From: a bacterium
Lineage (GTDB): Bacteria > UBA8248
Assembly: GCA_965219955.1 (NCBI GenBank)
Contig: OZ244799.1
Location: forward strand, 1,056,001 to 1,120,000
DNA: 64,000 nucleotides
Reading direction: 5' to 3'
Shown here: one piece after another, positions 6,323-37,019 of the stretch
How the letters are laid out: each line of letters starts with the position of its first letter
Position numbering within the stretch: the stretch's first letter is position 1
Translations under genes and position numbers: made by a program
The notes under the pieces: model-generated
What the model saw: the letters and a program-made list of their open reading frames with translations, nothing else
The model's database searches: none
Told to the model about the DNA's origin: nothing

Positions 6323-6849
6323 GGGGTTGTTGAAAAAGCCTGGTCTGCATCTCCGTAAACCGCCAACGCCTCTTTCCTCACCCTGAGTAGCCGCCGAAGG
6401 CGGTGTATCGAAGGGCGAGGAACTCGCGTCGGAACGAGAGCAAACGCTCATTCATCAATCGCGTTTGACATTCGATACGCGGCTCCGCCGCTACTCAGGA
6501 TGAGGCGGTGCGGGTTTTGGCCGTCATTCCGGCGAAAGCCGGAATCCATTTTGACTTTTCACCGGGCGGGGCGGCCACGACCTTGTTGTTTAGAGGCGTC
6601 CGGATGCGGAATTCAGAAAATTCGCCTTTCGTTTTTGTGTTCGATTCCGATACTCCCCGCCCGGGAGTAAAGACGTCCGAGCGAGGAGGCGAAAAAGCAA
6701 AGGCGAAAATGGATTCCGGCTTTCGCCGGAATGACGAGCAAAGTCACATCGCTTCTTGTAGGGACAGGTCGCGACCTGTCCCTACGGACCCTTCTCACCG
6801 GTTGGGTTTGTTCGCCAAATCACGAAATCAGGATTTTTTCAACAACCCC
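6323..6849. mobile_element. TIR-bounded composite repeat element (MITE-like, non-autonomous)
   Basis: Perfect 15-bp TIRs GGGGTTGTTGAAAAA/TTTTTCAACAACCCC. They enclose a CTCACCCTGAGTAG doublet (6376-6505), a GTCATTCCGGCGAAAGCCGGAATCCA doublet (6522-6736) and a GTAG palindrome (6758-6785). Confidence 0.8.
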
Positions 6850-6954: not shown

Positions 6955-8046
6955 ATGGAAAACGGCAAACGACCCATCGAATACGCCTGGTATCTGCCCT
7001 CGAACAAGCGGGGCGACGCCACCAGGCTCGGAACCGGCGAGGTGGAGATACCGCCCGAGATCGACTATCTCGTCCACGTGGCGCAGACGGCGGAGGCGAG
7101 CGGCCTCACGAACATGCTCATCCCGTGCAACACCTCGTGTTCGGACGGCTGGCTTCTGGCTTCCGCGATCGCCCGCGAAACGCGGAGTATAAAATTCTGC
7201 GTCGCCATACGGCCCGGCCTCACCACGCCGACCTTCGCCGTGCAGCAGGCGAACACGCTCGATTTCATCTCCGGCGGGAGGCTGACAGTGAACGTCGTGC
7301 CCGGCGGGTCATCGGTGGACGCGCGCCGCTACGGCGACTGGGTGGATCATGACGGACGCTACGAGCGGGCGGACGAGTTTCTGGATATCGTGCGCGCGTT
7401 CTGGACGGACGGGGAGGGTAGGGTGAACTACGAGGGCGCGCACTACCAGGTGGAGGACGGCTTCGTCTTCCCCGGCCCCGCGCGGCCGGGAGGGCCTCCG
7501 CTTTATTTCGGGGGAAGCTCGCCCGCGGCGAAAAAGGTCATCGCCAAGCACGCCGACGTTTTCCTGAAATGGGGAGAGCCCCCCTGGCAGATCGCCGAGG
7601 AATACGAGGAAGTCAAGAAAATGGCGCGCGAGGAGCATGGCCGCGATTTGAGATTGGGCGTGCGCTTCCACATCCTGGTGCGCGAGGACGACGCGCAGGC
7701 CAAGGAAGAGGCCGAGTCCATCATCGCGGGCACGGCGTCCTACGGGGAGAGTTCCTCCGTCACCGGCGAGGTGGCCGGGCAGGTGGAATCCGTCTCCCAG
7801 CAGCGGATGAACGCCATGACGGCGGAGGGGAAGCTCTGGCACGGGCCCGCGCTGTTTTCGGGCATCAACCTCGTGCGCCAGGGGGCGGGCACCATGCTCG
7901 TGGGAAGTCCCGAGGTGGTGGCCGACGCCATGCGCGAGTACATTGACTTAGGCGCGACCACGTTCATCCTCTCCGGCTGGCCGCATGACGAAGAGGCGCG
8001 TAATTTTGGGAAGTATCTTCTGCCGCTGCTGCCGGATGCGGTGTGA
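6955..8046 (+). CDS. LLM-class flavin-dependent monooxygenase (SsuD/MsuD-like)
   Basis: AIRPG, GGRLTVNVVPG, RYERADEFL, LYFGGSS, WGEPP and FILSGWPH motifs. Confidence 0.9.
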   Translation: MENGKRPIEYAWYLPSNKRGDATRLGTGEVEIPPEIDYLVHVAQTAEASGLTNMLIPCNTSCSDGWLLASAIARETRSIKFCVAIRPGLTTPTFAVQQANTLDFISGGRLTVNVVPGGSSVDARRYGDWVDHDGRYERADEFLDIVRAFWTDGEGRVNYEGAHYQVEDGFVFPGPARPGGPPLYFGGSSPAAKKVIAKHADVFLKWGEPPWQIAEEYEEVKKMAREEHGRDLRLGVRFHILVREDDAQAKEEAESIIAGTASYGESSSVTGEVAGQVESVSQQRMNAMTAEGKLWHGPALFSGINLVRQGAGTMLVGSPEVVADAMREYIDLGATTFILSGWPHDEEARNFGKYLLPLLPDAV

Positions 8047-8064
8047 GGGGGGTGTAAGGATTTT

Positions 8065-8092
8065 GTAGGGACAGGTCGCGACCTGTCCCTGC
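8065..8092. repeat. GTAG-type REP palindrome between convergent genes
   Basis: GTAGGGACAGGTCGCGACCTGTCCCTGC; near-identical copies at 6758, 14318 and 26232. Confidence 0.9.
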
Positions 8093-8113
8093 GGGTTCCG
8101 AATCTTTCTTCCT

Positions 8114-9061
8114 TCACCTCTCAATCAGGATATCCCCCGAAATCGAGGCCAGATCCTTACAGCCCGCCAGCACCATGGATTTTTCGAGTTCCGCCTGCAT
8201 GAGTTCGAGCATCTCCGCCACCCCGGCGGGGCCTTTTGCGAAAAGCCCCAGCACGAGCGCACGTCCCGAAGTCACGCCCTTCGCACCCCGCGCGAGCAGC
8301 TTCAGCACGTCGTCGCCTCTACGGACGCCGCTTTCGGCCAGGATCAGCACGTCGTCCCCCACGGCGTCCACGACCTCGGGGAGGATTTCCATGGGATGCG
8401 CCCAGGAGGGCCCGTGCGCGCCCCCGTGCGTGGTGACGATGATGGAAGCGGCCCCGGCGTCGCGCGCGATGCGCGCGGTCTCGGCCGAGCCCACCGCCTT
8501 GAAGACGAAGGGAAGCCCGGTGGCCTTCACGTAGCCTTCGAGCGCGTCCGCCCGCTGGGGTTCGCATTCGGGGTTGTAAAAGCCCGATTCGAAATCCATG
8601 CCCACGGCGAAGGCACCGGTGTCTTCGGCGAGTTTGAGCGAGGTAAGCGTGCGCTGTTTGTCCCGCCAGGGTTTCACGATGCGTATGGCGGAAGGATATG
8701 CGGCGGCGGCTTCGCGCCAGACGTCGTCCGAACAGTCGCCTATCCAGTATTGCGTCCCGAAGCGGGCGGCGCCCCTGGCGACTTGCAGGAACCCGTCCGC
8801 CCAGTGAGCGGCCAGCGTGTTCGCGCTCATCGAACCCGTCATGATGGGGCTTTTGAGCTTCTTGCCGAGAAAATCGAACCCGGTGTCGGCGGAATCGGTG
8901 AGCATCAAGCGCATTTTCAGGCCGAAGCGCGTGAATCCGGCCAGCGCGGTCTGCGTGCCGGGGAGGTCCGGCCCCAGGATATCGTAGGGGTTTCCTCCGC
9001 CCGATTTTTCGATGTTCACACGCGCTTGTTCATAAATCTCCCGATACGCCGCCTCGCTCAT
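8114..9061 (-). CDS. FMN-dependent alpha-hydroxy-acid oxidase family protein
   Basis: LPFVFKAV, VTTHGG, LPEVVDAV, SGVRRGDDVLKLLARGA and GRA motifs; start chosen at MSEAAY. Confidence 0.85.
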   Translation of the reverse strand: MSEAAYREIYEQARVNIEKSGGGNPYDILGPDLPGTQTALAGFTRFGLKMRLMLTDSADTGFDFLGKKLKSPIMTGSMSANTLAAHWADGFLQVARGAARFGTQYWIGDCSDDVWREAAAAYPSAIRIVKPWRDKQRTLTSLKLAEDTGAFAVGMDFESGFYNPECEPQRADALEGYVKATGLPFVFKAVGSAETARIARDAGAASIIVTTHGGAHGPSWAHPMEILPEVVDAVGDDVLILAESGVRRGDDVLKLLARGAKGVTSGRALVLGLFAKGPAGVAEMLELMQAELEKSMVLAGCKDLASISGDILIER

Positions 9062-9233
9062 TGCTTCATGCTCCTTCTCGCTTGAGGTTTCCTCGTTTCT
9101 TAAGATTTCCGGCTCCCGCGCGCCCGTTCCGCCTGCGTTTGGCGGATTCGCCACCCTGGGCTATCATTTCATGCAAAATAAACGCAAGAGATAACCCGTT
9201 CCGGTTTTCGGACATCCTGAGGAGGACGCCACC

Positions 9234-9542
9234 ATGATGATGGTCATTCTACACTATCCCGCCGTCGCGCCCACGCTCGCCGAGGTCCGCGCGGACAAGG
9301 AGCAGGCCGCCGCCTTTTTCGAGAACGAGGTGCCCGGCCTCATCGACAAGACTTGGGGCATGAACGAGGAGACGGGCCGCATGGCGTCGGTCTACCACTT
9401 CGAGGACAAGGCCACCGCCGACGCCTGGTTCAACTCCGAGAAACAGCGCAGCTTCCGCCGGGCGAACAACGCGAGCCTGGAGTACTTCGACGTGGCGGCG
9501 ATCGCGTATACGAAGCCGCTCAGGGAAGAGGCTACTGCGTAG
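9234..9542 (+). CDS. YdhR-like small dimeric alpha/beta-barrel (putative monooxygenase)
   Basis: VPGLIDKTW...ASVYHFEDKATADAW pattern; GAGGAGG RBS. Confidence 0.65.
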   Translation: MMMVILHYPAVAPTLAEVRADKEQAAAFFENEVPGLIDKTWGMNEETGRMASVYHFEDKATADAWFNSEKQRSFRRANNASLEYFDVAAIAYTKPLREEATA

Positions 9543-9607
9543 GTTCGCAGGGGCGATGGTTTTGTAGGGACAGGCCTCCGTGCCTGTCCGAGGTCGCGAC
9601 ATGTCCC
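9491..9607 (+). repeat. Direct repeat copy 1 (ydhR-like 3' end plus GTAG REP)
   Basis: Aligns with 11564-11676. Confidence 0.9.
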
Positions 9608-9667
9608 AGCGCGAGAATCGCGCCATGCTAAACGCCACACCCAAGAAATCTAAGACGGAACAATTTG

Positions 9668-10927
9668 ATGATTACACTGATTGAAGCCTTGAATTATCGA
9701 TGCTTGCGGTACGTGTCGAGACCTCTTGAGCCATTTCACGTTCTGGTCGGACCGAACGCCAGCGGCAAGACGACCTTTCTCGACGTCGTCGGATTTCTTC
9801 GGGATCTGGTATCCGGGGGATTGGATGAGGCGTTATCCAGCCGAACCACGAACCCGGAAGAACTCCTCTTTCGGCGTCAGGGCGAGAAGCTGGAACTTGC
9901 AGTTGAAGCCCGCATACCCGATGAGTTGCGCGAGCGAACGGCGAAACCGGAAATGGGCGCGGCGCGCTACGAGGTGGCCATCGGCTTCGATGGAACAAAG
10001 CGCCAGTTCGAGTTCAAGGCCGAGAAATTCTTGCTCAAGAAAACCCGGCTTACAGAGCCTGCCCAGCATTCACTATTCCCCATGCCCGCCGACGCGCCGG
10101 CATCGCTGTTGACAACGAAAGGTAGCCGTAACTACAAAACCGTGGTCAACAAAGTACAGGATGGAAATGACAATTTTTACAGCGAGACCTATCCCCAGGG
10201 GGGAAAGGGTTGGACCCCCTCATTCAAACTTGGGCCGCAAAAATCGGCCCTCGGCAATCTTCCAGCGGATGAAAAATCCCTTCCGGTGGCCTCGTGGTTT
10301 CGAGAATACCTGAAAACCGGCGTACAGCAGTTTGTTCTGAACAGCCTCGCGATCAGACAACCCAGCCCACCGACCCGAGTAACAGGTTTTTTACCCGATG
10401 GATCGAATTTGCCCTGGGTGGTCGCCCGTCTACGGCAAGAGAACAAAGACAGGCATGGTGACTGGATTGCGCACCTTCGGACGGCGCTCGACGATCTCGT
10501 AGATATTACGACCATTGAGCGCCCGGAGGATAAACATTGCTATATGGTCTATGAATATAAGGGTGGTTTGAAAGTGCCTTCGTGGATGGTGTCCGATGGC
10601 ACGCTCCGGCTTACGGCACTGACCTTGCCTGCTTATCTCGACGAGTTGAAAGGGATCTATCTGATCGAAGAACCGGAGAACGGCATCCACCCACGCGCCG
10701 TGGCGACCGTTTATGATTCTCTCTCCTCGGTGTATTCAGCCCAGGTCCTGCTGGCGACTCATTCACCGGTGGTCTTGAGCGAAGCTAAAATTGACGATGT
10801 GCTGTGTTTTGCCAAGGATGGTTCGGGAGCGACGGATATCGTTCTTGGTTCCAAGCATCCCAAACTACAGGAGTGGCACGGAGAAGCCGATCTTGGGACG
10901 TTACTCGCCTCAGGGGTTTTGGGTTGA
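9668..10927 (+). CDS. ABC/AAA_21-type ATPase, defence-associated (resembles MADS Mad3 and OLD-type ATPases)
   Basis: N-terminal NYRCL, Walker A GPNASGKT, signature VSDGT, Walker B LIEEPENGIHP, H-loop ATHSP. Confidence 0.85.
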   Translation: MITLIEALNYRCLRYVSRPLEPFHVLVGPNASGKTTFLDVVGFLRDLVSGGLDEALSSRTTNPEELLFRRQGEKLELAVEARIPDELRERTAKPEMGAARYEVAIGFDGTKRQFEFKAEKFLLKKTRLTEPAQHSLFPMPADAPASLLTTKGSRNYKTVVNKVQDGNDNFYSETYPQGGKGWTPSFKLGPQKSALGNLPADEKSLPVASWFREYLKTGVQQFVLNSLAIRQPSPPTRVTGFLPDGSNLPWVVARLRQENKDRHGDWIAHLRTALDDLVDITTIERPEDKHCYMVYEYKGGLKVPSWMVSDGTLRLTALTLPAYLDELKGIYLIEEPENGIHPRAVATVYDSLSSVYSAQVLLATHSPVVLSEAKIDDVLCFAKDGSGATDIVLGSKHPKLQEWHGEADLGTLLASGVLG

Positions 10928-11550
10928 AAGACCTTGTTATTGTCGTCGCCGACAAAAACCTGGAACACGCTCTGAACGGGTTACTTTCCAGGCCGGAAGC
11001 ATTAGGCATTCGAGCCATAGAGGCGGATATCTACCGGCATCCGCAACACGATCCAGGTTGTGCAGTACACGGTGTTGAATTCATTTCCAATTTCGCCAAC
11101 CAGTATCGCCACGGTTTGCTCATGTTCGATCATGAAGGAAGCGGAAAAGAGACGACGACTACGCCTAAAGCGTTGCAAGAAAGCCTTAATGAGAGTTTCG
11201 CCATATCAGCTTGGGGCGAACAAGCCAAGGCCATCGTGCTTGCTCCTGAGCTGGAGGTTTGGATTTGGGGCAATTCTCCGCACGTCGACGAGGTGACGGG
11301 ATGGAGGAACAGGGAACCCGGTCTTCGTCAGTGGTTGGTCGAGCAAGGCTATTTGCAAGAAGGCGAAGTCAAACCCTCGCGACCGAAAGAGGCTTTCGAA
11401 GCAGCCCTGCGGGAAGCGCAAAAACCTCGCAGCGCATCTCTATATCTTCAGATGGCAGAAAGCGTTTCCTTACGTCGATGTACGGATTCGGCCTTCATAG
11501 AGTTGAAAAGCATCCTTAATGATTGGTTTCCCCCCGAAAGTGAAGTGTAG
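10924..11550 (+). CDS. ATPase partner protein (resembles MADS Mad4; possible TOPRIM-like nuclease)
   Basis: TTG start overlaps the ATPase stop (TTGA); DLVIVVADKNLE, HPQHDPGC, FDHEGSG, PELEVWIW and RPKE motifs. Confidence 0.65.
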   Translation: MKDLVIVVADKNLEHALNGLLSRPEALGIRAIEADIYRHPQHDPGCAVHGVEFISNFANQYRHGLLMFDHEGSGKETTTTPKALQESLNESFAISAWGEQAKAIVLAPELEVWIWGNSPHVDEVTGWRNREPGLRQWLVEQGYLQEGEVKPSRPKEAFEAALREAQKPRSASLYLQMAESVSLRRCTDSAFIELKSILNDWFPPESEV

Positions 11551-11563
11551 CGTATCATTCATC

Positions 11564-11676
11564 CGTGGCGGCGGTCGCGTATACGAAGCCGCTGCGGGAG
11601 GAGGCGACGGCGTAGTTTTGTAGGGGCGGGGATGTGGTAGGGACAGGCCCCTGTGCCTGCCCGAGGTCGCTGTCCC
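11564..11676 (+). repeat. Direct repeat copy 2 (orphan ydhR-like 3' end plus GTAG REP)
   Basis: Encodes VAAVAYTKPLREEATA*, versus VAAIAYTKPLREEATA* in copy 1. Confidence 0.9.
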
Positions 11677-11691
11677 GATTGATAATGCCTT

Positions 11692-11718
11692 CGTAGGGGC
11701 GGACCCGTGTGTCCGCCC
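11692..11718 (+). repeat. GTAG REP, left arm of the inverted pair around the HEPN gene
   Basis: CGTAGGGGCGGACCCGTGTGTCCGCCC; exact reverse complement at 13409-13435. Confidence 0.92.
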
Positions 11719-11811
11719 TGTTTGTTGGGAGGCCGTTGCGAAGATGAAATGTTTATTGAGCGTAACCAATGAATGACTGTAGATGTTGCATACCGCTAAA
11801 ATAGGGGCAAA

Positions 11812-13302
11812 TTAAAAAAAGTCATTCGAATCAAACTGTCTCGATTCGATTGGAAGAATAATCTTGTTCCTGTCTTTACCCTCTTCTTTGATCTGTTCTT
11901 CTCTGTGCATTGCCAAAGACAAGTAAACTAGCGCTTCCCTCGCTATTCGGAGCATTCGTAAAGTATTATCAATAAAAGCATCAAGGGGAACAAAACCATG
12001 CAACTCTGTCCCCGACATAGCTTGGCTGTAGAATTGGAGGTTCAGAAACCTATGCTCCGCACGATTTCGGAGATCGGATAACTGTGTGGCGTCGGGTTCT
12101 GCCACGTCGTTGAATTCAATTTCAAACAAATCCTTGGAAAGGAAATAGAGCCCACGAAGAAGCCAGTTCTGGTTTCCTTGAAAGATCTGCCTGAGTTGAT
12201 AACTTGTTGTACCATGTGGCTTCTCGCACCATATGTTTCTAAAGTTGACTCCTTTAGGATTGAGTCCAATAGAATAATAGTCGTTCAAGAACAAGGCTAT
12301 CTTGTCAAGAATTGCGTATGCTGCCCGGAAAGATGATTTCAATTCCTCGGTATGGTGGCCATATATATTTCCATCCGCCAAATCATACAAACTAATGTCA
12401 CGATTCACGAAGCGGTCATTGGTTTGATTTATTGCGCTGAAATAGCGATATCGAGAGCTTACAAATTCCTGCTTTAGAATGTTGTAATATTCTACAAAGC
12501 GTGGGGCTTCATCAATTTGGTATTTGTGATTTGGAAGATGAAGAATATCTCTTGCGGCTACAGAAAGTTTAAGTACATCATTTAATGGATTCAAAAACAG
12601 TTTCTCATCAAGGCACCAGCGGCGGAAATGTCGCTCTTTCTCACTATTGCCCAGCGACCATTGGTTCAAATCAAAATTGTCATCAAACTTGCAGTCTTTT
12701 AGGAAATTATCAATTTCTTTCCTGCTGTCTTGGAAGAGTGGCTTGAAATTTGAATGTTCAAATTCGTCCCATACCGCTTTTTGAGAGAGGGCGGCATCAT
12801 AACCAGAGCGAGCGGCGCCCAGCATGATTGGTTTATGGCCGGGATCATAAAGGGCCCCAGCATAATGGGAAATGGAACGGGCTTGATTACCGAGTGCCAT
12901 TGCGAAATTAGGATTTTGCTTTAAAACCGTATTCCATTGCTCGATAGCTGCGATTGGTCGTCCAAGATTATTAAGCCTATTACCGAGATTCGTGCGTATT
13001 CTGTACTGAAAGATGGCATCCACCTTGCCAAAAGCGGATTCTTTGATTGCTTGTCTAAGCGCGAGAATTTCAGCGATATTCTCAGGCTGATTCCAACCCC
13101 AAGCATAATCTGTGCCAGTCGAGCGAACAGCAAATATGCCAGCGTATGAATTAGCTTCGTAATAGCGTAGTATTACTCGCTGCTCGTCTGTGGCGACTTC
13201 TAATTTGTCTCGGCATTCTTGAGCTAATACCGCCAATGTTTTTTCGTCTTTGGCATCACATGCTGCATCAATTTGCTTACCAAGATTGAACGGGTCATCC
13301 AT
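11812..13302 (-). CDS. LA2681-family HEPN domain protein with TPR-like N-terminus (putative RNase toxin)
   Basis: LFLNPLND, YAILDKIA, LRGLYFLSKDLF and the HEPN R-x4-H motif LRNRAEH; low GC. Confidence 0.8.
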   Translation of the reverse strand: MDDPFNLGKQIDAACDAKDEKTLAVLAQECRDKLEVATDEQRVILRYYEANSYAGIFAVRSTGTDYAWGWNQPENIAEILALRQAIKESAFGKVDAIFQYRIRTNLGNRLNNLGRPIAAIEQWNTVLKQNPNFAMALGNQARSISHYAGALYDPGHKPIMLGAARSGYDAALSQKAVWDEFEHSNFKPLFQDSRKEIDNFLKDCKFDDNFDLNQWSLGNSEKERHFRRWCLDEKLFLNPLNDVLKLSVAARDILHLPNHKYQIDEAPRFVEYYNILKQEFVSSRYRYFSAINQTNDRFVNRDISLYDLADGNIYGHHTEELKSSFRAAYAILDKIALFLNDYYSIGLNPKGVNFRNIWCEKPHGTTSYQLRQIFQGNQNWLLRGLYFLSKDLFEIEFNDVAEPDATQLSDLRNRAEHRFLNLQFYSQAMSGTELHGFVPLDAFIDNTLRMLRIAREALVYLSLAMHREEQIKEEGKDRNKIILPIESRQFDSNDFF

Positions 13303-13355
13303 TCGATTAACTCTGAAAACGGGTGGTCAAAAAGGCGGGCGAAAACACATGGGAT

Positions 13356-13384
13356 GGTATAACGACGGCGAGAGATTTCGTCAA
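13356..13384 (-). promoter_or_regulatory. Sigma70-type promoter of the HEPN gene
   Basis: Minus strand TTGACG-17 nt-TATACC. Confidence 0.55.
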
Positions 13385-13408
13385 ACATATTGTGTGCGTA
13401 AGTCGATT

Positions 13409-13435
13409 GGGCGGACACACGGGTCCGCCCCTACG
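13409..13435 (-). repeat. GTAG REP, right arm of the inverted pair around the HEPN gene
   Basis: GGGCGGACACACGGGTCCGCCCCTACG. Confidence 0.92.
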
Positions 13436-13454
13436 GAAGCACTGCGATAGGGGG

Positions 13455-13667
13455 TTCACTCCCCCCTTGAGAGGGCTGTTGAAAAAGCCCTGTATGCGTC
13501 CCCTGGAAACCGCCGACGCCTCTTTCCTCACCCTGAGTAGCCGCCGAAGGCGGCGTATCGAAGGGCGAGGGGGCTCGCGCCGTGGCGAGAGGGCATCCTT
13601 CGATACGCGGCTTCGCCGCTACTCAGGATGAGGCAGTGTGGTTTTGTTCGTCATTCCGGCGAAAGCC
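13455..13667. repeat. Left part of composite repeat element, truncated next to brnA
   Basis: ACTCCCCCCTTGA, then TIR GGGCTGTTGAAAAAG (13473), CTCACCCTGAGTAG doublet and partial GTCATTCCGGCGAAAGCC; collinear with the 6323 and 28637 copies. Confidence 0.85.
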
Positions 13668-13682
13668 CCGGCGGCACCTCGT

Positions 13683-13973
13683 TTACGCCCGTTTCGAGGC
13701 CTTCGTGGCGTGTTCGCGGAGCACGCGGTTCATCTCGGTCTGGTATCCCCGACCGTTTGGGGCGTTCGACCGGAACCAGGCCACCACGTCGGCGTCGAGC
13801 CTGAGTGTGATCTGCCGCTTCACGGGCCGGTAGAGGAGGCCGCGCCTCGCTTCCGACCAATCCAGAATTTCAGGAATGTCGCTCGTATCGATCGCCTCAT
13901 CAGAAAGGCCCGCGAGCGCCTCGATTTCCGCCTTCTGCTTCCCTGTGAGTTTTTTAGAAATCGCCTTGCTCAT
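13683..13973 (-). CDS. brnA: BrnA-family antitoxin
   Basis: IDTSDIPE, RPVKRQITLRLDADVVAWFR and GYQTEMNRVLR motifs. Confidence 0.92.
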   Translation of the reverse strand: MSKAISKKLTGKQKAEIEALAGLSDEAIDTSDIPEILDWSEARRGLLYRPVKRQITLRLDADVVAWFRSNAPNGRGYQTEMNRVLREHATKASKRA

Positions 13974-14238
13974 AAGCTCTCCTCTCTCGCGCCGTGGCTT
14001 TTCTGGCGCTGATGATGCGGCCCGTCTCGGCGCCGGTTTCGCCCTGCGCTTGAGGCCATGTGTGCGCCACGATGACGACCACGCCCCCGATCATCCCGAT
14101 GGTGTGCCACCGCTCCTCGTTCGGGTTCGGGCGGTGGGCCATGAGCGGATCGTCGAACACAAGCCTTGCCGTCTCGAAGCCGAGGCCATGCTTGCGCCTG
14201 TTCGCGCGATTCTTGTCGTCATCCCATTCCCAGCGCAA
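13954..14238 (-). CDS. brnT: BrnT-family RNase toxin
   Basis: WEWDDDKNRANRRKHGLGFE, EERWHTIG and RIISARKAT motifs. TTG start chosen because the upstream ATG lies inside the promoter. Confidence 0.92.
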   Translation of the reverse strand: MRWEWDDDKNRANRRKHGLGFETARLVFDDPLMAHRPNPNEERWHTIGMIGGVVVIVAHTWPQAQGETGAETGRIISARKATARERRAYEQGDF

Positions 14239-14264
14239 CGAACCGGCTCTTTTGTCGTTATGAT

Positions 14265-14293
14265 ATTGTAGTGACATAAATGTATTTCGTCAA
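14265..14293 (-). promoter_or_regulatory. Sigma70 promoter of brnTA
   Basis: Minus strand TTGACG-17 nt-TACAAT. Confidence 0.7.
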
Positions 14294-14317
14294 GCAAGCG
14301 AATTTCGGCATGAATCT

Positions 14318-14656
14318 GTAGGGACAGGTCGCGACCTGTCCCTGCGAAATCATAACTCTTCCTTAACTTACCGGACGAGAATGACCAACTAACTAAAGAC
14401 GGGCGGACACTTAGGTCCGCCCCTACAGCGGGCCTTTTTCATACCGCGCAGGTGGCCACAAAGCCTCATCCTGAGTAGGCGCGCAAGCGCCGTATCGAAG
14501 GATGGGGAGGTGTCACCCGCCGAGCGAGAGCAATCGCTTCCGCATTGGGCGCGATTGTCCTTCGATACGCCGCCTTCGGCGGCTACTCAGGATGAGGAAG
14601 GTGGGGGGCGGAGCCTGCCCCGAGCGAAGTCGAGGGGCCGCTACTCAGGATGAGGA
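14318..14656. repeat. Cluster of GTAG REPs and CTCATCCTGAGTAG-family repeats
   Basis: GTAG palindrome 14318-14345; inverted REP 14401-14426; doublet 14464-14597; GAGCCTGCCCCGAGCGAAGTCGAGGG...CTACTCAGGATGAGG 14611-14656 (also near 28816-28860). Confidence 0.85.
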
Positions 14657-14691
14657 AGACGGGGAGGCTCGATTACAGGGAGAACCCACCG

Positions 14692-15426
14692 TCAATAACC
14701 CAAGACGCTGTAATCGCCGTCCAGGATCAGGCGGATGGAGACGTACAGCCCCAGCAGCGGGCACAGTATCCAGGGGGCATTCATCGCAAGGATGTAGATA
14801 TACAGTTCGCCCCGGCTGATCCGGGCTTGCCGGTCGGCTACGAAGAAGCTGACCAGGTAGACCGACGTCATGTACGTCAATTGCCAGAACAGCATTGCGC
14901 CGATGACCCCCGCAGCGAGGGCGGGCAACATATCGAACGTATAGGCGGCGTAGAGGATCAGCGTCGGGACCGGCGTCGCGAAGCCGTTCGCGATATCCAC
15001 GTTGAAACCGTAAGTGCGCCGGTCCGCGTAGGAGCCGTCGAACTGTGCGTACGTCGCCCAGATATCCGCCCACACCGTCGGCGACAGCGCCTTCGCAAGC
15101 GGAACTTTCGTGAGGAGGAATTCGACGGCCGGTGTTCCGCCCGCCTCGTCCCGGCGCTCGCGCCAGTACACGGTGCGCGCCTCGATGTAGTCGCGTCTTA
15201 AGAACAGGCACGCCTCGAAATAGCAGATCAGCAGATTGGTCGAAAAGAACAGGCTCAAAACGGCGTGAATGACGTCGAAATCCCCGCGAGCGAAGTAGCG
15301 GCCGCCGACCCCGGCGAATGCCAGTGTCGCGACGAGCAGCGCGGCGAGCAGTCCCGCCGGCATCCCCAGCCGGCTCAGGCGCGCGCCGCGTTCTGGGTGC
15401 GCTGGGTCGGTTCGGTATTCGGGCAT
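14692..15426 (-). CDS. Integral membrane protein, EXPERA/emopamil-binding-like
   Basis: About 6 TM segments; WATYAQFDGSYAD and MNAPWILCP resemble EXPERA motifs. Confidence 0.5.
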   Translation of the reverse strand: MPEYRTDPAHPERGARLSRLGMPAGLLAALLVATLAFAGVGGRYFARGDFDVIHAVLSLFFSTNLLICYFEACLFLRRDYIEARTVYWRERRDEAGGTPAVEFLLTKVPLAKALSPTVWADIWATYAQFDGSYADRRTYGFNVDIANGFATPVPTLILYAAYTFDMLPALAAGVIGAMLFWQLTYMTSVYLVSFFVADRQARISRGELYIYILAMNAPWILCPLLGLYVSIRLILDGDYSVLGY

Positions 15427-15528
15427 GTATCTTGATCCTCGCAGGGAGTCCAGCGTCACAACTCCCTGCATTGTAATCGATCGATGCCCCCCCGCAATCC
15501 GCACCGGTGGGTCAAACCCGATCGAAGA

Positions 15529-15749
15529 GGGGTTGTTGAAAAGTCCCGTGGAGCGATTTTGGCTGATCGCATGCTTTTGAAGTTCACTCCCCCCTTGAGG
15601 GGGAGTCGATGAAGCCGAGCGGTTTGTGCGAAGGCTGAATCGGTGGGGGGTAAAATGCGTTTTATCGCCATTCCGAATTATACCCCCACCGGTTCGCTTG
15701 CGGGCTTACGCCCTTACCTCACCGACTCCCCCTCAAGGGGGGAGTGAAT
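15529..15749. repeat. Left TIR plus ACTCCCCCCTTGAGGGGGAGT doublet
   Basis: GGGGTTGTTGAAAAG at 15529; hairpins at 15583-15607 and 15724-15749 in inverted orientation. Confidence 0.8.
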
Positions 15750-15832
15750 CTCATCTTGCTCGCTCGCCTTTATTCACTAGCACCCGCCCAGCCTCTCGCG
15801 ATATAAAGATCGAAGCCGCCGGGAGGAAGATC

Positions 15833-16996
15833 ATGAAAATTTTATGGAAGAATGCAATGCTTGCCCTCGGGTCAAAGAGGTGTGCCGCGGCCCTGCCATT
15901 GCTCCTCGCTTTGCTGCTCTCCGCACTTACCGCCACTCCCGGGTGGGCGGCGGTGCGCCAGACACTGAGCGGCCCGGTTTCTGTCGAGCAGGTGGCTGGG
16001 GACCTCGATACCCCCTGGGGGATTGCGTTCCTGCCGGGCGGGGCGTTTCTCGTCACCGAGCGTGGCGGCTCGCTTTTTCATTTTGACTCTGTGCGTCGCA
16101 GGATTAAAGTATCAGGCGTCCCGCAAGTCTACGCTTGGGGGCAGGGCGGGCTGATGGACGTCGCCGCCGCGCGGGATTTCCCCGAAACGCGCGAGATTTT
16201 CCTCACCTACTCGAAACCCCGCCGAGGCGGCGGAGGCACGGCACTGGCCGTCGCCGCCCTTTCTGCCGACAACCGGAAGCTCGAGAACCTGCGCGTCATC
16301 TTCGAGATGGCGTCGCCTTCCTCCGGAGGCCGGCATTTCGGCTCGCGGGTCATCGAGGCGCCCGATGGCACGCTCTTTCTCACCCTGGGCGAGCGGGGCG
16401 ACCCCGACAAGTCGCAGGACCTCTCGCTCCACCACGGCAAGATAATCCGCATCCGGCGCGACGGGAGCGTTCCGCCTGACAACCCGTTCGTCGGGCGGGC
16501 GGGGACGCGTCCTGAAATCTGGTCGTGGGGACACAGGAACCCGCAGGGCGCCGCGCTCGATGCGGCGGGCGCGCTCTGGGCCGTCGAGCACGGCGCGCGG
16601 GGCGGGGACGAGATAAACCGGGTGAGGCGAGGGCGCAACTACGGGTGGCCCGTCATCGCCTACGGGCGGCACTACTGGGGCGGGAAGATAGGCGAGGGCA
16701 CTGCGAAAGAGGGCATGGAGCAGCCCGATTTCTACTGGGACCCCTCCATCGCGCCCTGCGGGATGGCGATCTATTCAGGAAAGCTGTGGCCGGCCTGGCG
16801 CGGGCATTTTTTCGTCTCCTCGCTGAAATACGACCATATCTCAAGGCTGGACCCCAAAGGCGGTCTCAGGGAAGTGGAGCGACTGGCTTTCCCCGAGACG
16901 GGCCGCGTGCGCGACGTCCAGGAAGCGCCCGACGGCTCAATTTGGTTCCTGTCCGAGGAGAGGGAGGCGGTCTACAGGATCAGGCCCCTTCGGTAG
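15833..16996 (+). CDS. PQQ-dependent aldose sugar dehydrogenase (YliI/GSDH family)
   Basis: PWGIAFLP, GQGGLMDV, HFGSR, GHRNPQG, EHGARGGDEIN and GRVRDV motifs. Confidence 0.92.
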   Translation: MKILWKNAMLALGSKRCAAALPLLLALLLSALTATPGWAAVRQTLSGPVSVEQVAGDLDTPWGIAFLPGGAFLVTERGGSLFHFDSVRRRIKVSGVPQVYAWGQGGLMDVAAARDFPETREIFLTYSKPRRGGGGTALAVAALSADNRKLENLRVIFEMASPSSGGRHFGSRVIEAPDGTLFLTLGERGDPDKSQDLSLHHGKIIRIRRDGSVPPDNPFVGRAGTRPEIWSWGHRNPQGAALDAAGALWAVEHGARGGDEINRVRRGRNYGWPVIAYGRHYWGGKIGEGTAKEGMEQPDFYWDPSIAPCGMAIYSGKLWPAWRGHFFVSSLKYDHISRLDPKGGLREVERLAFPETGRVRDVQEAPDGSIWFLSEEREAVYRIRPLR

Positions 16997-17493: not shown

Positions 17494-18225
17494 CTAGTTT
17501 GGGCTTGATGATTCAGGCGCGGGTATGCCCAGGTAATTCGACACGAGCCGCTCGTCCGACATCAGTTCCGCCGCAGTGCCGTGGAGCGTAATCCGTCCGC
17601 TTTCGAGAACGTAAGCCCGGTCGGCGAGCGCCAGAGTCCGCCGGACGTTCTGTTCGACGAGGAGGATGGTGATCCCCTCCTCGCGCAGCCGGGAGATCAG
17701 TCCGAAAACCTCCTCCGCCAGCCTGGGCGACAGGCCGAGCGAGGGTTCGTCCAGCAGCAGCATCCGGGGTTTGGACTCGAGCCCGCGGGCGAGCGCCAGC
17801 ATCTGCGCTTCGCCGCCGCTCAGGCCGGCGGCCGGACTGTCCAGTTTGTCCGCAAGGGCGGGGAACAGGCGCTGCAGGCCCGGGCGGCCGCGGCGCCGCA
17901 ACACGAACCGGCCGCTCTGATGGGCGGCGACCTGGAGGTTTTCCTCCACGCTCAAGGTTCCGAAGATCATCCGCCCCTCCGGAACCTGCACGATGCCGCG
18001 GGCGACGACGGCGTGCGACGGCAGGCCGCCGATCGACTCCCCCTCGAAGAGGATCTCGCCCTTCTCCGGCGGCACGATGCCCGAGACCGCATTGAGGACC
18101 GACGTCTTGCCGGCGCCGTTTGCGCCGATGATGGAAACGATCTCTCCGGGCCGGACTTCCAAGGACACCGCATCGACCGCGCGGATACCGCCGTAGGAGA
18201 CGCCCAGCCCGCGCACTTCAAGCAT
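17494..18225 (-). CDS. Branched-chain amino acid-type ABC ATP-binding protein (LivF-like), set 2
   Basis: GANGAGKT, LSGGEAQ, LLDEPSLGL and VEQN motifs. Confidence 0.9.
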   Translation of the reverse strand: MLEVRGLGVSYGGIRAVDAVSLEVRPGEIVSIIGANGAGKTSVLNAVSGIVPPEKGEILFEGESIGGLPSHAVVARGIVQVPEGRMIFGTLSVEENLQVAAHQSGRFVLRRRGRPGLQRLFPALADKLDSPAAGLSGGEAQMLALARGLESKPRMLLLDEPSLGLSPRLAEEVFGLISRLREEGITILLVEQNVRRTLALADRAYVLESGRITLHGTAAELMSDERLVSNYLGIPAPESSSPN

Positions 18226-18976
18226 CGGGCGCATCGTCCCTGCCCAGATAGGCTTCACGGACCTTCGCATCGGCGAACACCTCGCCCGGGAGGCCTTCCG
18301 CTATCTTGCGGCCGAAATCGAGCACGCAAATACGGGTGCACACGCCCGCGATCAGCGCCATCTTGTGCTCGATCACCACACAGGTGCGGTTCGGAGCGAC
18401 GACCTCATGGATGAGCCGGGCCATGTCCGCGGTCTCGGCCGGAGTCATGCCGCCCGCCGGTTCGTCCAGGAACACCAGCGGCGGATCGGTCGTCAGCGCG
18501 CGGGCGACCTCCAGGCGCCGGCGCGCCGGCAAGGGGAGGTTTTTCGCCAGCACTTCACGATCTTTCAGAAGTCCAAACAACTCCAGCATTTCATCGACTC
18601 TTCCGGTATCGGCGCATTTGTGCGTCGGTCGGCTTCGCAACAGTCCGAGCAGCCCGCCCGAAACCCGGCTGTGCTGCGAGGCCCACACGTTCTGGAAAAC
18701 GGTCATGGTTGGAAACAGGCGGATGTTCTGAAACGTGCGCGCGATTCCCAGGCGTGCTATCCGGTGCCCTCGCCATCCGGTGATGTCCGCGCCCTGAAAG
18801 GAAATGCGCCCGCCGCTCGGCGGGTACACGCCGGTCACGGTGTTCAGAAGCGTCGTCTTGCCCGATCCGTTGGGTCCGATGAGGCCCAGAACCTCTCCGG
18901 CCGCGACCTCGAGGTCGATCCTGTCGAGCGCCGCCAGAGCGCCGAAGCGTTTTTCGACCCTCCTAAGCGCGAGCAT
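18218..18976 (-). CDS. ABC ATP-binding protein (LivG-like), set 2
   Basis: GPNGSGKT, ARTFQNIRLF, LDEPAGG, EH and AYLG motifs. Confidence 0.9.
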   Translation of the reverse strand: MLALRRVEKRFGALAALDRIDLEVAAGEVLGLIGPNGSGKTTLLNTVTGVYPPSGGRISFQGADITGWRGHRIARLGIARTFQNIRLFPTMTVFQNVWASQHSRVSGGLLGLLRSRPTHKCADTGRVDEMLELFGLLKDREVLAKNLPLPARRRLEVARALTTDPPLVFLDEPAGGMTPAETADMARLIHEVVAPNRTCVVIEHKMALIAGVCTRICVLDFGRKIAEGLPGEVFADAKVREAYLGRDDAPDA

Positions 18977-19871
18977 GATTCCGCCTCGAGAACACGGCCT
19001 TCAACCGATGCACCCGCTCCTCGTCGAGGATGCCGCGCGGCATGAAGATCAACAGTATCGCCACCAGGCCGCCGAACACGATCATCCGGTAGCCCTGGAT
19101 GAAGCGAATCGCCTCCAGAAAGCCGACGTCGATGGCGACGCCGATGAGCGGTCCGAACGCCGTGCCGAGGCCTCCGATCAGGCCGTAGGCGAGGGCGTGC
19201 ACGCCCAGCATGACGTTGAAGAACTGCGGCTCCACATAGGTGGTGAAGTGTGCGTAGAGAGCCCCGCCGACGCCCGCGATCACACCGGCCGCCCCCACCG
19301 CCAGAATACGATAGCGCACGGTGTTCAGGCCCTGCATCTCGGCCAGCAGATCATCCGAACCGAGCATTCTGAGAACCGAACCCAGACGGGAGCGCTCGAC
19401 GAGCAGCAAGAAAATCACCGTCAGTGCGAGCAATCCGTAGATGAGGAGCATGAACTCGGTCAGGCTGATGTCGCGCTCGAACATCCAGCGGATGCCGTGG
19501 AATCCGTTTGCGCCCTCCGGACCTACCATCTCTCCATCGACTTCGACCTGAATTTCGACGATCAACAGGATCAGGCGCGCCATCTCCGCAAAAGCCAGGG
19601 TCGCTACCGAAAAGTAGAGACCGCTGAGCTGAAGCGTCAAAGCCCCCACGACCATCGCGATGATTCCGGCCACGCACGCGCCGACGAGAATTCCGGCCCA
19701 GATCGGCAACTGGAACATGGCGGTCGCAGCACCGGCCGCGTACGCGCTCAGGCCGAAGTAGGCCTGCTGGCCGAAGGAGATCTCCCCCGTCAGCAACAGC
19801 AGGTAGGCAGACAGCGCGATGAACGAGATCATGCCGATGTTCGACAGCACCGTGATGACGTAGTCGTCCAT
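18963..19871 (-). CDS. ABC permease (LivM-like), set 2
   Basis: GEISFGQ, GLYFSVATLAFAE and GGLGT motifs. Confidence 0.9.
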   Translation of the reverse strand: MDDYVITVLSNIGMISFIALSAYLLLLTGEISFGQQAYFGLSAYAAGAATAMFQLPIWAGILVGACVAGIIAMVVGALTLQLSGLYFSVATLAFAEMARLILLIVEIQVEVDGEMVGPEGANGFHGIRWMFERDISLTEFMLLIYGLLALTVIFLLLVERSRLGSVLRMLGSDDLLAEMQGLNTVRYRILAVGAAGVIAGVGGALYAHFTTYVEPQFFNVMLGVHALAYGLIGGLGTAFGPLIGVAIDVGFLEAIRFIQGYRMIVFGGLVAILLIFMPRGILDEERVHRLKAVFSRRNHARA

Positions 19872-19874
19872 CCC

Positions 19875-20774
19875 TCAAACCCGCCGGAAAGCGAGAGCCT
19901 CGCGGCTCAGAATGCGTTGACCCATGAGGCCGCCGGGCCGCAGCACCAGCATCCCGAACAGCAGCAGATATGCGCTGAGATCCTTGTATTCGTTACCCAG
20001 ATACCAGAGAGCGTGGGCTTCGACGACGCCCAGCAGCAAGCCGCCCAGAATCGCGCCCGGCAGCGACCCCATGCCGCCCAGCATCATCGCAATGAGACCC
20101 TTGAAGGTGGCCCACAAGCCGAAGAAGGGGGTAATCTGCGCATCCGTGGACAATATGGCGTAGCCTGCCACCCCGCCCATCAGGGACACCAGCGCGAATG
20201 CGCACAGCGTGACCCAGGCCGCATTGATGCCCATGTAGGCGGCGGCCAGAGAGCTTTCGGAGACCGCTCGCAACGCCAGGCCAAAACGGGTGCGATACAA
20301 CAGGACGTGCAAAACGCCGACCATGATCATCGCCAGGACCAGCATCGAGGTCTGTTCCGCCCGGAACAGAAAAGGTCCGAGTTCGAAGGAATCGGCTGCG
20401 AGCAAAGCGGGGAAGGCGTAGGTGCGCTCGGGCAGCAGATGAATTGCAGCTTCCTCCAACTGCATCCAGATCACGAAGCTCGACACCATCGACGCGAGCA
20501 CGGCGCTGCGGCGGATGGCGTGAAAGCACAAGCGTTCGACGTAGATGCCGACGAGGACGGTGCTCGTCAGTGTCGTAAGAGCGACGATCCACACACTGAC
20601 CTGATGATGCACATGCAGCCACGTGCCGATGTAGGCGCCGAGCATGATGGTGGCGCCGAAGGAGAGGTTGATCCGGCGCATCACGCCGAAAATGATCGTG
20701 AAGCCAATCGCCAGAAGCGCGTAGGACGAACCGAACATGATGCCGTCGACCGTATTCTGGACAAAATCGATCAA
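19875..20774 (-). CDS. ABC permease (LivH-like), set 2
   Basis: YALLAIGFTIIFG, TRFGLALRA, GGMGSLPGA and RPGGL motifs. Confidence 0.9.
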   Translation of the reverse strand: MIDFVQNTVDGIMFGSSYALLAIGFTIIFGVMRRINLSFGATIMLGAYIGTWLHVHHQVSVWIVALTTLTSTVLVGIYVERLCFHAIRRSAVLASMVSSFVIWMQLEEAAIHLLPERTYAFPALLAADSFELGPFLFRAEQTSMLVLAMIMVGVLHVLLYRTRFGLALRAVSESSLAAAYMGINAAWVTLCAFALVSLMGGVAGYAILSTDAQITPFFGLWATFKGLIAMMLGGMGSLPGAILGGLLLGVVEAHALWYLGNEYKDLSAYLLLFGMLVLRPGGLMGQRILSREALAFRRV

Positions 20775-20801
20775 GACGCGCTCCCACGACTCCGGTATTC
20801 G

Positions 20802-21518
20802 TTAATCCTTCTGCGACCCGAGGTAGGCCCGGTGAATGACCTCGTCTTCTGCGAGTTCACCGGGCGATCCCGAGAATGTGATTTCTCCGTTTTCGATGAG
20901 GTAGAACTTGTGGGCCACGGTCAGCGCCATATGGGCGTTTTGCTCGACCAGGAAAATCGTGACGCCTTCCGCATTCAGTTCGCGGATGATGCTGAAAATC
21001 TCCCTGACGATCAACGGCGCCAGCCCGATGGATGGTTCGTCCATGAGGAGAATCTTGGGACGATTCATCAGGCCCCTGGCGATGGCCAGCATCTGCTGCT
21101 CGCCTCCCGACAGAGTGCCCGCAAGCTGACCCTTGCGTTCTTCCAGGCGAGGAAAGCGCCGGTACATGTCCGCGACATCGGCCGCGACCTCCGCCTCGGA
21201 AGCCCGCCGGGAGTAGGCGCCGGCATGGAGGTTCTCCTCGACGTTCATGTAGGGAAAGACAAGACGGTTCTCGGGCACCAAAGCGAGGCCTCTTGACACC
21301 ACCCTGCTGGCCGGCAACCGCGTTATGTCATCGCCGCTCAAAACGACGGAGCCGGATTCGGGGGAAAGGATGCCTGCAATGGTGAACATGGTCGTCGTTT
21401 TGCCCGCGCCGTTCGGGCCGAGCAGACACGTGATTTCGCCCTCGGCCGCATCGAGGCAGATGCCTCGCAGCGCCTGAACTTTTCCGTAGGAAGTGACGAG
21501 ATCCCGAACGCTCAGCAT
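20802..21518 (-). CDS. ABC ATP-binding protein (LivF-like), set 1
   Basis: GPNGAGKT, LSGGEQQ, MDEPSIGL and VEQNA motifs. Confidence 0.9.
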   Translation of the reverse strand: MLSVRDLVTSYGKVQALRGICLDAAEGEITCLLGPNGAGKTTTMFTIAGILSPESGSVVLSGDDITRLPASRVVSRGLALVPENRLVFPYMNVEENLHAGAYSRRASEAEVAADVADMYRRFPRLEERKGQLAGTLSGGEQQMLAIARGLMNRPKILLMDEPSIGLAPLIVREIFSIIRELNAEGVTIFLVEQNAHMALTVAHKFYLIENGEITFSGSPGELAEDEVIHRAYLGSQKD

Positions 21519-21522
21519 GTTC

Positions 21523-22299
21523 TCAATCGCCCGTATCGAGAGAGGGGGCATCCGAGTCGGATGTTCCCAGGTAAGCCTCCTGCACGGCCTTGTTCCGCTG
21601 CACGTCGCCTGGAGTCCCGGATGCGATCTTCTGCCCGAAATTGAGAACGGCGATTTGCTCCGCCACACCCATGACGAGTTCCATCACGTGCTCGACGAGC
21701 AGAATCGTTACTCCGGAATCACGGATACGCCGAATGCGCAGGCTCAAATCATGAATCTCCTGGCGGTTCATGCCGGCTGCAGGTTCGTCCAGCAACAACA
21801 ACTTCGGGCGGGCCGCCGCGGCGCGGGCAAACTCCAGTCGCCGTTGTTCCCCGAATGCGAGGTTGGATGCGAGTTCATCGCTTTTGTGTTCCAGATCGGC
21901 GAGTTCGAGCAGGGTGGCGATCTCCCTCCGGGTCCGGCGGGTAGCGCCGAACCAGCGTGACAGAAAGCCTTGCGTGGCGAGATCCTCAGGTGAGTTCTGC
22001 GCCACCCACAGATTCTGCCATACGGTGAGATTCGGAAACAGGCGGATATTCTGGAACGTTCGGGCGATTCCCGCCCGCAGGCGCTGGTGCGGCGGCTTGC
22101 CGTTCATCAGTTCCTCGTGGAATCGAACCGTACCGGCCGTTTCCTGATACACGCCGCAGATCAGGTTGATGGTCGTGCTCTTGCCCGATCCGTTGGGGCC
22201 GATCAACCCGAAGATCTCACCCTCTTGAACCGTGATGTCCAGCTCATCTACGGCCCTGACTCCACCGAAGTGTTTCGACAGTCCGCTCAGCTCAAGCAT
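21523..22299 (-). CDS. ABC ATP-binding protein (LivG-like), set 1
   Basis: GPNGSGKS, ARTFQNIRLF, LDEPAAG and VEH motifs. Confidence 0.9.
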   Translation of the reverse strand: MLELSGLSKHFGGVRAVDELDITVQEGEIFGLIGPNGSGKSTTINLICGVYQETAGTVRFHEELMNGKPPHQRLRAGIARTFQNIRLFPNLTVWQNLWVAQNSPEDLATQGFLSRWFGATRRTRREIATLLELADLEHKSDELASNLAFGEQRRLEFARAAAARPKLLLLDEPAAGMNRQEIHDLSLRIRRIRDSGVTILLVEHVMELVMGVAEQIAVLNFGQKIASGTPGDVQRNKAVQEAYLGTSDSDAPSLDTGD

Positions 22300-23206: not shown

Positions 23207-23212
23207 CGGTGG

Positions 23213-36945: not shown

Positions 36946-37019
36946 TGGCTGGGGGAGGAGGATTCGAACCTCCGTACCCAGATCCAGAGTCTGGTGTCCT
37001 GCCGCTAGACGATCCCCCA
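36946..37019 (-). tRNA. tRNA-Gln(CTG)
   Basis: Minus strand TGGGGGATCGTCTAGCGGCAGGACACCAGA-CTCTGGA-TCTGG...GGTTCGAATCC...CCCCAGCCA, with encoded CCA. Confidence 0.95.

Follow-up and report, generated by a model that had tools for sequence, protein, structure and literature searches.

Why should an intact gene have a second, diverged copy of its own 3' end standing alone downstream of it? The question is raised by a ydhR-like gene in a 64,000-nt stretch of DNA from an uncultured bacterium (lineage UBA8248; contig OZ244799.1, positions 1,056,001 to 1,120,000), which we refer to as the window. The gene's own end (copy A) and the orphan end (copy B) lie on either side of a cassette of two genes, mad3 and mad4. 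From comparisons of the sequence with its relatives, we propose that the duplication is probably the scar of a recombinase-free, illegitimate join that placed two alternative fillings of one genomic site in series.

Two diverged ends of one gene

Copies A and B form the sole long direct repeat revealed by a repeat search of the region. They align over 107 nt with 84% identity at a spacing of 2,073 nt (E = 3e-26 in a self-BLAST of the whole window), and the similarity extends to about 9607 and 11676 if a 4-nt gap is allowed. A first-pass annotation of the window had described 52-bp copies of the ydhR end that differ by five synonymous changes and one I/V replacement, with similarity running on through a GTAG-tagged repetitive extragenic palindromic (REP) element to about 115 bp, and this description is right in every detail that we checked. 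In the ydhR frame, 6 of the 52 coding nucleotides differ (atc/gtc for the I/V change, which is conservative, and ctc/ctg, agg/cgg, gaa/gag, gct/gcg and act/acg). Since 39 of the 153 possible single changes are synonymous, five or more synonymous changes among six would arise by chance with a probability of 0.005 to 0.010, as computed with a transition bias of 1 to 4. In the non-coding part there are 11 differences in 55 nt, and each copy has a GTAG-tagged palindrome there (9564-9589 and 11637-11662). The copies match exactly for no more than 19 nt in a row, and their identical opening is limited to the first 10 nt, CGTGGCGGCG. G or C occupies 15 of 16 third codon positions in copy B and 12 of 16 in copy A, the downstream copy thus being the richer in GC codons, as had been claimed; the fraction in the body of ydhR is 0.93. 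Self-BLAST listed 28 pairs of window repeats of at least 45 nt, and the others inspected, a part of the 28, are palindromic or MITE-like (miniature inverted-repeat transposable element) sequences or paralogous ABC-transporter genes.

For comparison, we used 26 loci from one ydhR-protein scan of genome contigs, a set outside the window's own genome. The ydhR proteins of 22 of these loci (L001-L022) are 78-100% identical to that of the window, and those of L023-L026 only 54-57%. All 22 related records are metagenome-assembled genomes, several of them labelled Nitrospinota. Synteny upstream is conserved, with the order PhoX-like gene, luciferase-like monooxygenase, flavin mononucleotide (FMN)-dependent dehydrogenase and ydhR, and the REP1 element follows ydhR in relatives as well. 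A blastn-short search combined with a six-frame peptide search detected a second ydhR or ydhR tail within 10 kb in none of the 26 loci, with exactly one tail in 20 and none in six. The duplicated tail is unique to the window among the loci compared.

The tails themselves were compared among 17 relatives (L001-L016 and L022), because the tails of L017-L021 are more diverged or incomplete and L023-L026 are too distant. Wherever A and B differ by a synonymous change, these intact orthologues are polymorphic as well. Therefore, the copies are alleles of different lineages, and not the products of a local duplication that drifted. This agrees, as does the synonymous excess, with the earlier proposal that both copies evolved under coding selection. 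The tail is far more variable than the rest of the gene, such that close relatives show 3-7 differences in its 52 nt compared to 5-9 in the 257-nt body. Copy A is three changes from L001, L003 and L007, and copy B is three changes from L022 and L005. The I-to-V change of copy B is private, the nucleotide at that site being A in all 17 relatives, which fits a copy that is no longer under selection.

Alternative fillings of one site and the joint between them

Sequence content after ydhR varies between the related loci. The mad3-mad4 pair lies directly past the gene in six of the 22 closer loci (L002, L006, L007, L012, L016 and L022, hereafter mad+), and MAD3 proteins are 88-93% identical between these and the window. 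A domain scan that took in 25 of the 94 open reading frames (ORFs) of these regions found AbiJ-like cargo (L001, L003, L004, L015), DUF2806/Abi_alpha cargo (L005, L010, L014), Schlafen-AlbA_2 cargo (L010, L013) and DUF3644 with a restriction-endonuclease-like domain (L003). In L008 little except brnTA follows ydhR, and the more distant loci L011 and L016-L020 have a flavin adenine dinucleotide (FAD) oxidoreductase nearby. The only classical mobile-element gene seen at the site is the DDE transposase of an insertion sequence directly after ydhR in L015 (10467-11924).

A second palindrome, REP2, lies in forward orientation 54-153 nt after the ydhR stop in nine mad-less loci (65-85 nt in seven of the nine) and follows ydhR in no mad+ locus. 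In five of the nine (L001, L004, L005, L010 and L013), an inverted REP2 closes a cargo slot of 1.46-2.0 kb. The leader of mad+ loci starts where REP2 starts in mad-less loci, just past the motif GAGAAT.GC..C. One site can therefore be filled in either of two ways, with mad3-mad4 or with the REP2-bracketed slot. Judging by its predicted genes, the DNA that follows ydhR in this clade of uncultured bacteria is a recombinase-free defence hot spot that lies between conserved genes. Across 21 genome pairs, the distances of mad3 and mad4 show only a poor correlation with those of the flanks (r = 0.34 and -0.12). Moreover, synonymous divergence (dS) is higher in the mad genes than in the flanks, and mad3 and mad4 distances exceed flank distances in every genome pair, not just in those that involve the window. 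These values point to frequent allelic exchange among lineages at the locus.

Other observations concern the slot and its records. The cargo between REP2 pairs varies by genome (HEPN_LA2681, AbiJ-like, DUF2806/Abi_alpha or Schlafen-AlbA_2), and homology between genomes stops at the palindromes. L005, a contig of 2,499 nt, is labelled Candidatus Poribacteria, yet its ydhR protein is 100% identical to that of the window and it has the same REP1-REP2 head as Nitrospinota-labelled loci; this short contig may be mis-binned. In L001, L004 and L006, brnA matches occur without brnT, and window positions 14038-14195 have no counterpart in L006, such that some relatives seem to have kept the brnA antitoxin but lost most of brnT.

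The mad+ loci are homologous to the window as far as 11535 (L006, L022, L002, L012) or 11537 (L007), in the WFPP codons near the end of mad4, and L016 behaves alike in a separate alignment. For at least 60 nt past this break point, sequence common to all six mad+ relatives can be recognised, and the window lacks it. The 28 nt that follow in the window have no match in the 26 loci or elsewhere in the window, and align with the six mad+ right flanks only at chance level. The mad4 frame nonetheless stays open across this joint, with a new tail of four residues. Copy B is next, followed by REP1b, a spacer with ATGCCTTC, REP2 at +78 nt, TGTTTGTTGGG, a cargo gene and an inverted REP2. This segment is collinear with the ydhR-REP1-REP2 head of mad-less L004, L005 and L008, and its ATGCCTTC-REP2-TGTTTGTTGGG arrangement agrees with L004 and L005 at every base of the conserved parts. 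A complete mad-less haplotype therefore begins with copy B. The window becomes homologous to relatives again at brnA (13658-13684; L001, L004, L006, L007, L008 and L022). The flanks are 84-97% identical to relatives, with a conserved anchor on one side and one novel joint on the other. At the level of sequence, the comparison shows the window to be a mad+ haplotype (to 11535) fused by exactly one non-homologous joint to a mad-less haplotype that starts at ydhR position -52 (Table 1). The idea that the 2-kb cassette arrived as a unit, put forward in the first-pass annotation, is not supported in that form by these data. The mad3-mad4 pair occupies the same position with the same leader in six of 22 loci, none of which has an orphan tail, and copy B heads a complete alternative haplotype.

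A comparable scar is present at the right border of the site. Directly after mad4, L006 and L022 carry a relic of a pyrroloquinoline quinone (PQQ)-dependent dehydrogenase gene that consists of the ribosome-binding site, start and signal-peptide region. The relic of L006 (12442-12584) is 72% identical over 146 nt to the full gene at 14427-14572, and that of L022 (12439-12523) is 78% identical over 86 nt to the full gene at 13381-13466. In both loci, brnA(T) lies between the relic and the full PQQ-dehydrogenase gene that forms the right border; in L012, the real gene directly follows mad4. An independent event at the other border thus appears to have stacked two fillings as well and to have left a diverged border-gene fragment, the mirror image of the scar in the window. 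This parallel makes a recurring process more likely than a curiosity.

Table 1. Features around the orphan ydhR end, in window coordinates.
Feature	Position	Strand	Remarks
ydhR-like gene (102 aa)	9234..9542	+	left border gene of the hot spot; Pfam ydhR PF08803, E = 1.6e-8, over cutoff
Copy A	9491..9597	+	last 16 codons and stop of ydhR (9491-9542), then REP1a
REP1a	9564..9607	+	GTAG-tagged palindromic element, expanded form; pattern match, 0 expected by chance
Leader of mad cassette	9598..9664	+	92.5% identical to L002, 91% to L022; begins where REP2 begins in mad-less relatives
mad3 (420 aa)	9665..10927	+	AAA/ABC-type ATPase; NCBIfam NF047739 MAD3, 507.4 bits, cutoff 420
mad4 (208 aa)	10924..11550	+	Toprim-like nuclease partner; NCBIfam NF047734 MAD4, 217.6 bits, cutoff 160
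Non-homologous joint	11536..11563	+	last 4 mad4 codons and stop, then 13 nt
Copy B	11564..11670	+	orphan ydhR tail (11564-11615) and REP1b (11637-11662)
REP2 (+)	11693..11718	+	left bracket of cargo slot, terminator-like; 78 nt past copy B stop
HEPN_LA2681 gene (496 aa)	11812..13302	-	cargo of REP2 bracket; Pfam PF18733, E = 2.5e-59; ~42% G+C
REP2 (-)	13409..13434	-	right bracket of cargo slot; inverted partner of left REP2
brnA (13683-13973) and brnT (13954-14277)	13683..14277	-	toxin-antitoxin pair; Pfam BrnA_antitoxin, BrnT_toxin

How two fillings could come to stand in series

We infer that one ordinary homologous exchange in a conserved flank was combined with one illegitimate end join, as in homology-facilitated illegitimate recombination with DNA from a related lineage. 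Because the exchange would be homologous on one side and the join illegitimate on the other, the incoming filling would be added and the resident one kept. On this reading, the orphan gene end would be a by-product and not a functional site.

Such an event could have run in either of two directions. In direction Y, a fragment with the order ydhR tail-REP1-REP2-HEPN-REP2 and onward would have recombined at its right, on the brnA side, and its left end, too short and diverged to do the same, would have been joined illegitimately to the sequence immediately past mad4. The old mad4-brnA spacer would have been replaced, and copy B would be a passenger piece of the donor's ydhR. In direction X, a fragment that ends with ydhR-tail A-REP1-mad3-mad4 would have been anchored on the left, with its far end joined backwards at position -52, and copy B would be the displaced native end. 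Alternatively, the fragment of direction X might first have closed to a circle and entered by crossover within the 107 nt of 84% identity. We lean slightly, and tentatively, toward Y, since it would be the usual insertion-plus-deletion outcome of one-sided recombination and would need neither a backward join nor a circle. Direction X is a possibility of somewhat lesser weight, a part of which belongs to the circle route, and what is left falls to artefact or other routes.

The first-pass annotation had favored copy B as the displaced native end on the basis of its codons, and had suggested that ydhR orthologues be aligned. This alignment confirms both 3' variants as natural alleles, but lends no support to a native copy B. 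A-like codons are common in relatives (agg, with A at 9522, in 9 of 17; gaa, with A at 9527, in 11 of 17), and each copy is three changes from some close relative. Third-position G+C was therefore rejected as a guide to direction. The nearest neighbor of each segment was also rejected: L006 is the nearest relative of both flanks (92-97% DNA identity in most segments), and L006 and L002 are nearest to the cassette (89-90%), with no clear switch between them. Likewise, dS was set aside, the mad genes being more diverged than the flanks in every genome pair. Copy A does contain rare alleles (9521C in 3, 9533T in 1 and 9536T in 2 of the 17 relatives), and two more, 9479G and 9482G, lie just upstream. 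Such a grouping of rare alleles near the ydhR stop would be in keeping with an imported tract. Copy B, however, is equally far removed, with six changes from each of three of the four nearest relatives.

Other explanations would place the two tails differently. In the scenario of the circle, which we regard as unlikely, a single homologous crossover in the tail or REP would have brought 2,073 bp of tail A-REP1a-mad3-mad4 from a related lineage into an empty site, displacing the native end as copy B. The order homology-cassette-homology is as expected for Campbell-type integration, relatives do have mad-less sites of the form that it requires, alleles of the cassette are exchanged between lineages, and the rare alleles 9479G, 9521C, 9533T and 9536T cluster at the ydhR 3' end like a donor tract. 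However, 107 nt of homology at 84% identity with no identical run longer than 19 nt is a poor substrate, and the crossover would be needed at the extreme edge of the repeat because A/B differences span its whole length. Moreover, the tail is found at the right end of the cassette in none of the six other mad+ genomes, which have a different right flank in common, so no source of such a circle is seen, and the codon argument for a native copy B fails. Genomic islands that target a gene's 3' end for integration and supply a replacement end give a duplication of the attachment (att) site, and thus the same picture: direct repeats of a gene end bracket the inserted DNA and the gene stays intact. 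Copies A and B might accordingly be read as attL and attR of a decayed element that targeted the ydhR end with an integrase provided in trans. This is hardly to be expected, given that no integrase or transposase domain was detected in the cassette or the window ORFs scanned, that the repeats are diverged over their whole length with no identical core within unrelated arms, that none of the six mad+ relatives with the same cassette has the right-hand repeat, and that the right boundary of mad4 differs in every genome. We give as little credence to a second, tandem ydhR paralogue at 11.3-11.6 kb that was truncated by mad3-mad4 landing in it, although this too would explain two tails that evolved under coding selection. 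It was the case that the first-pass annotation had named as contradicting its own proposal, and no such paralogue was found: a second tail is absent from all 26 loci, and the cassette of mad+ relatives sits between ydhR/REP1 and the PQQ-dehydrogenase gene or brnA without any ydhR remnant.

Several considerations weigh against the proposed illegitimate join. Among them is an assembly artefact in which co-existing mad+ and HEPN-carrying strains were assembled in series. The two halves of the window are exactly the two alternative haplotypes of the site, which are expected to co-occur in a population, and the window evidently comes from an assembly of the metagenome type, like all related records. 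Nevertheless, we consider an artefact improbable. The joint lies in unique sequence that offers no shared stretch for an assembler to use (the copies share exact matches of 19 nt at most, and only 10 identical nt open copy B), the mad4 reading frame and stop are intact across it, and the HEPN protein of the window is recorded on a single contig of 4,283,615 nt. In addition, no convincing microhomology is present at the joint, where only the 10 nt of CGTGGCGGCG are common to the starts of both copies. Both flanks are closest to L006 and the cassette has no clear donor, and these comparisons give no guide to the direction of the event. The event is also reconstructed from other species, with ~88-94% DNA identity in the flanks, and not from a conspecific pre-event genome. 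Finally, that the mad pair functions alone, without the other six genes of the methylation-associated defence system (MADS), is itself something that we infer.

The cassette, its neighbors and known scars of this type

The mad3 product matches Pfam AAA_21 and AAA_15, and Pfam gives no domain match for the product of mad4, whose TTG start overlaps the mad3 stop. The best PADLOC matches for the cassette are HEC-01A, mad3 and mad4. Among PDB sequences, MAD4 has no match, and MAD3 matches only PtuA and one OLD nuclease, weakly. As described in the sections consulted here of PMC13662399, MAD3-MAD4 of Pseudomonas aeruginosa is a 2:2 heterotetramer of ATPase and Toprim-like nuclease that is related to OLD nucleases and belongs to MADS, an eight-gene system that includes a methyltransferase. 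As in MADS, both window proteins pass the NCBI equivalog cutoffs, and the overlapping genes are under purifying selection. Values of dN/dS relative to relatives are 0.08-0.11 for mad3 and 0.11-0.17 for mad4; therefore, the cassette is maintained by selection. Its G+C content is ~53-55%, compared to ~64% in the flanks. Unlike in MADS, no other MADS model is matched by the 37 further large window ORFs (E <= 1e-5) or the four neighbors of the pair, which thus stands alone here. Instead of a mad1-mad8 operon, the window has ydhR and the HEPN gene next to the cassette, and in the seven genomes the pair lies between ydhR and differing downstream modules, the scan for mad genes having covered the window. 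The pair is, by prediction, a stand-alone OLD-like anti-phage module, and in all likelihood acts as an OLD-like ATPase-nuclease against invading DNA, which it would cut. Only mad3 and mad4 lie inside the cassette, which bears out the earlier remark that it carries no recombinase. The MAD4 proteins of the seven genomes are alike up to WF(P/T)P (window 11533-11550) and then differ, with tails of 0 to 7 residues of four kinds that are paired in L002/L012, L006/L022 and L007/L016.

Past copy B, the window continues with REP2(+), the HEPN gene (-), REP2(-), a MITE-like element, brnA/brnT (-) and further palindromes. Positions 11686-11718 form a 33-nt inverted repeat with the right REP2 that is 94% complementary. 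GTAG-tagged palindromes number 5 + 4 copies in the window, where none would be expected by chance, and are also present in most related loci; all five copies of the first REP pattern fall within 9564-14426. The HEPN_LA2681 gene is found nowhere in the 26 loci, and its nearest protein homologue, among more than 1,300 relatives found, is 79% identical. The gene looks as if it had come in recently from a foreign source. Genome G+C is ~62-65%, compared to ~42% in this gene. The brnA-brnT pair is flanked by 46-nt inverted repeats (13519-13564 and 14559-14604; 93% complementary) that are part of the MITE-like palindromic element. Other window copies of this element lie at about 6324-6540, 26.2-26.9 kb and 28.6-29.1 kb, and the best pair (13461-13633 and 28626-28798) is 92.5% identical.

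Machinery for movement was sought in the window as well. No integrase, transposase or REP-associated tyrosine transposase (RAYT) was detected among the window ORFs scanned (sets of 8, 37 and 22, limited to ORFs of at least 80 aa). Positions 8000-16000 give no Rfam match and hence no attC-type feature, and with no integrase among the scanned ORFs the locus has neither the attC site nor the nearby intI of an integron cassette. There is no tRNA at the site, the only tRNA of the window being at 36946. A promoter and terminator scan gave nothing above shuffled sequences, except for the terminator-like REP2. A candidate for another diverged gene-end duplicate, 18445-18749 and 21768-22072, was ruled out. 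These repeats are 75-77% identical and are explained by paralogous ABC-transporter operons, one on the minus strand at 17494-21668 and the next at 21523-25609; two long ORFs on the plus strand over the former, 17581-18414 and 18804-21296, are antisense to it and spurious.

Scars of this type are known from other settings. In Rhs, contact-dependent inhibition (CDI) and type VI secretion system (T6SS) effector-immunity arrays, orphan or displaced 3' ends arise through homology-facilitated illegitimate recombination, as treated in the part of Kirchberger et al. 2017 (PMC5361080) that bears on them. As in those arrays, the window has a conserved upstream anchor, a module from another lineage that is added and not swapped, and a 3' end that is shifted back; copies in one genome are not each other's closest relatives, and there is no integrase. 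Direction X, with its displaced native end, would match the model proposed there for orphan toxin ends and immunity arrays. In the arrays, however, the repeated end is that of the toxin gene itself, and according to that part of the source orphans are kept as reserves of immunity and toxin genes. Here, the repeated end belongs to a housekeeping border gene and is apparently a mere by-product, and both a displaced resident end and a passenger donor end have been considered for it.

The setting resembles cDHS1 and cDHS2 of P. aeruginosa, core defence hot spots with conserved genes on either side (Johnson et al. 2023, PMC10250203). In the portion of that study that concerns us, these sites likewise have a fixed pair of border genes, highly variable defence cargo and no obvious mobile-element machinery, and transfer via homologous flanks is proposed. 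Unlike at cDHS1 and cDHS2, the scar of a failed clean replacement is visible in the window, and every module is bracketed by REP-type palindromes. These palindromes are like the REP elements and bacterial interspersed mosaic elements (BIMEs) treated in passages of PMC3733652 and PMC2817692, being short, G+C-rich, tagged with GTAG at the 5' side, and placed between genes in both orientations. In contrast to REP systems with a RAYT transposase, no RAYT (Y1 transposase) is present among the window ORFs scanned, and the joint that made the duplicate lies outside any REP. Thus, scars of this type are familiar at Rhs, CDI and T6SS loci, and integrase-borne islands leave one of similar outward form; what is different here is the setting, namely a housekeeping border gene at a recombinase-free hot spot of uncultured bacteria with REP-bracketed modules.

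A bolder conjecture, which we hold to be doubtful, is that the ydhR tail and REP1 serve as a portable 'homology handle'. Modules would travel as recombinase-free fragments or small circles that include the end of a border gene and would regularly be stacked and not swapped, while REP pairs would mark module boundaries and might be processed by RAYT in trans. If this is true, the ydhR orphan of the window and the PQQ-dehydrogenase relic of L006 and L022 would be two products of one recurring route of defence-island growth.

How hot spots are built without integrases is stated as an open question in the section of PMC10250203 that addresses it. Clean replacement via homologous flanks leaves no trace, whereas failed clean replacement does, and the resulting scar dates and orders an acquisition. 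The scar in the window indicates that alternative fillings of one site can add up, here to an OLD-like nuclease pair, a HEPN gene and brnTA, such that a defence island may grow without a recombinase of its own. For uncultured bacteria, in which genetics is not possible, sequence scars are the only record of such events. Orphan, synonymously diverged ends of border genes could serve as a search key for island growth in any genome.

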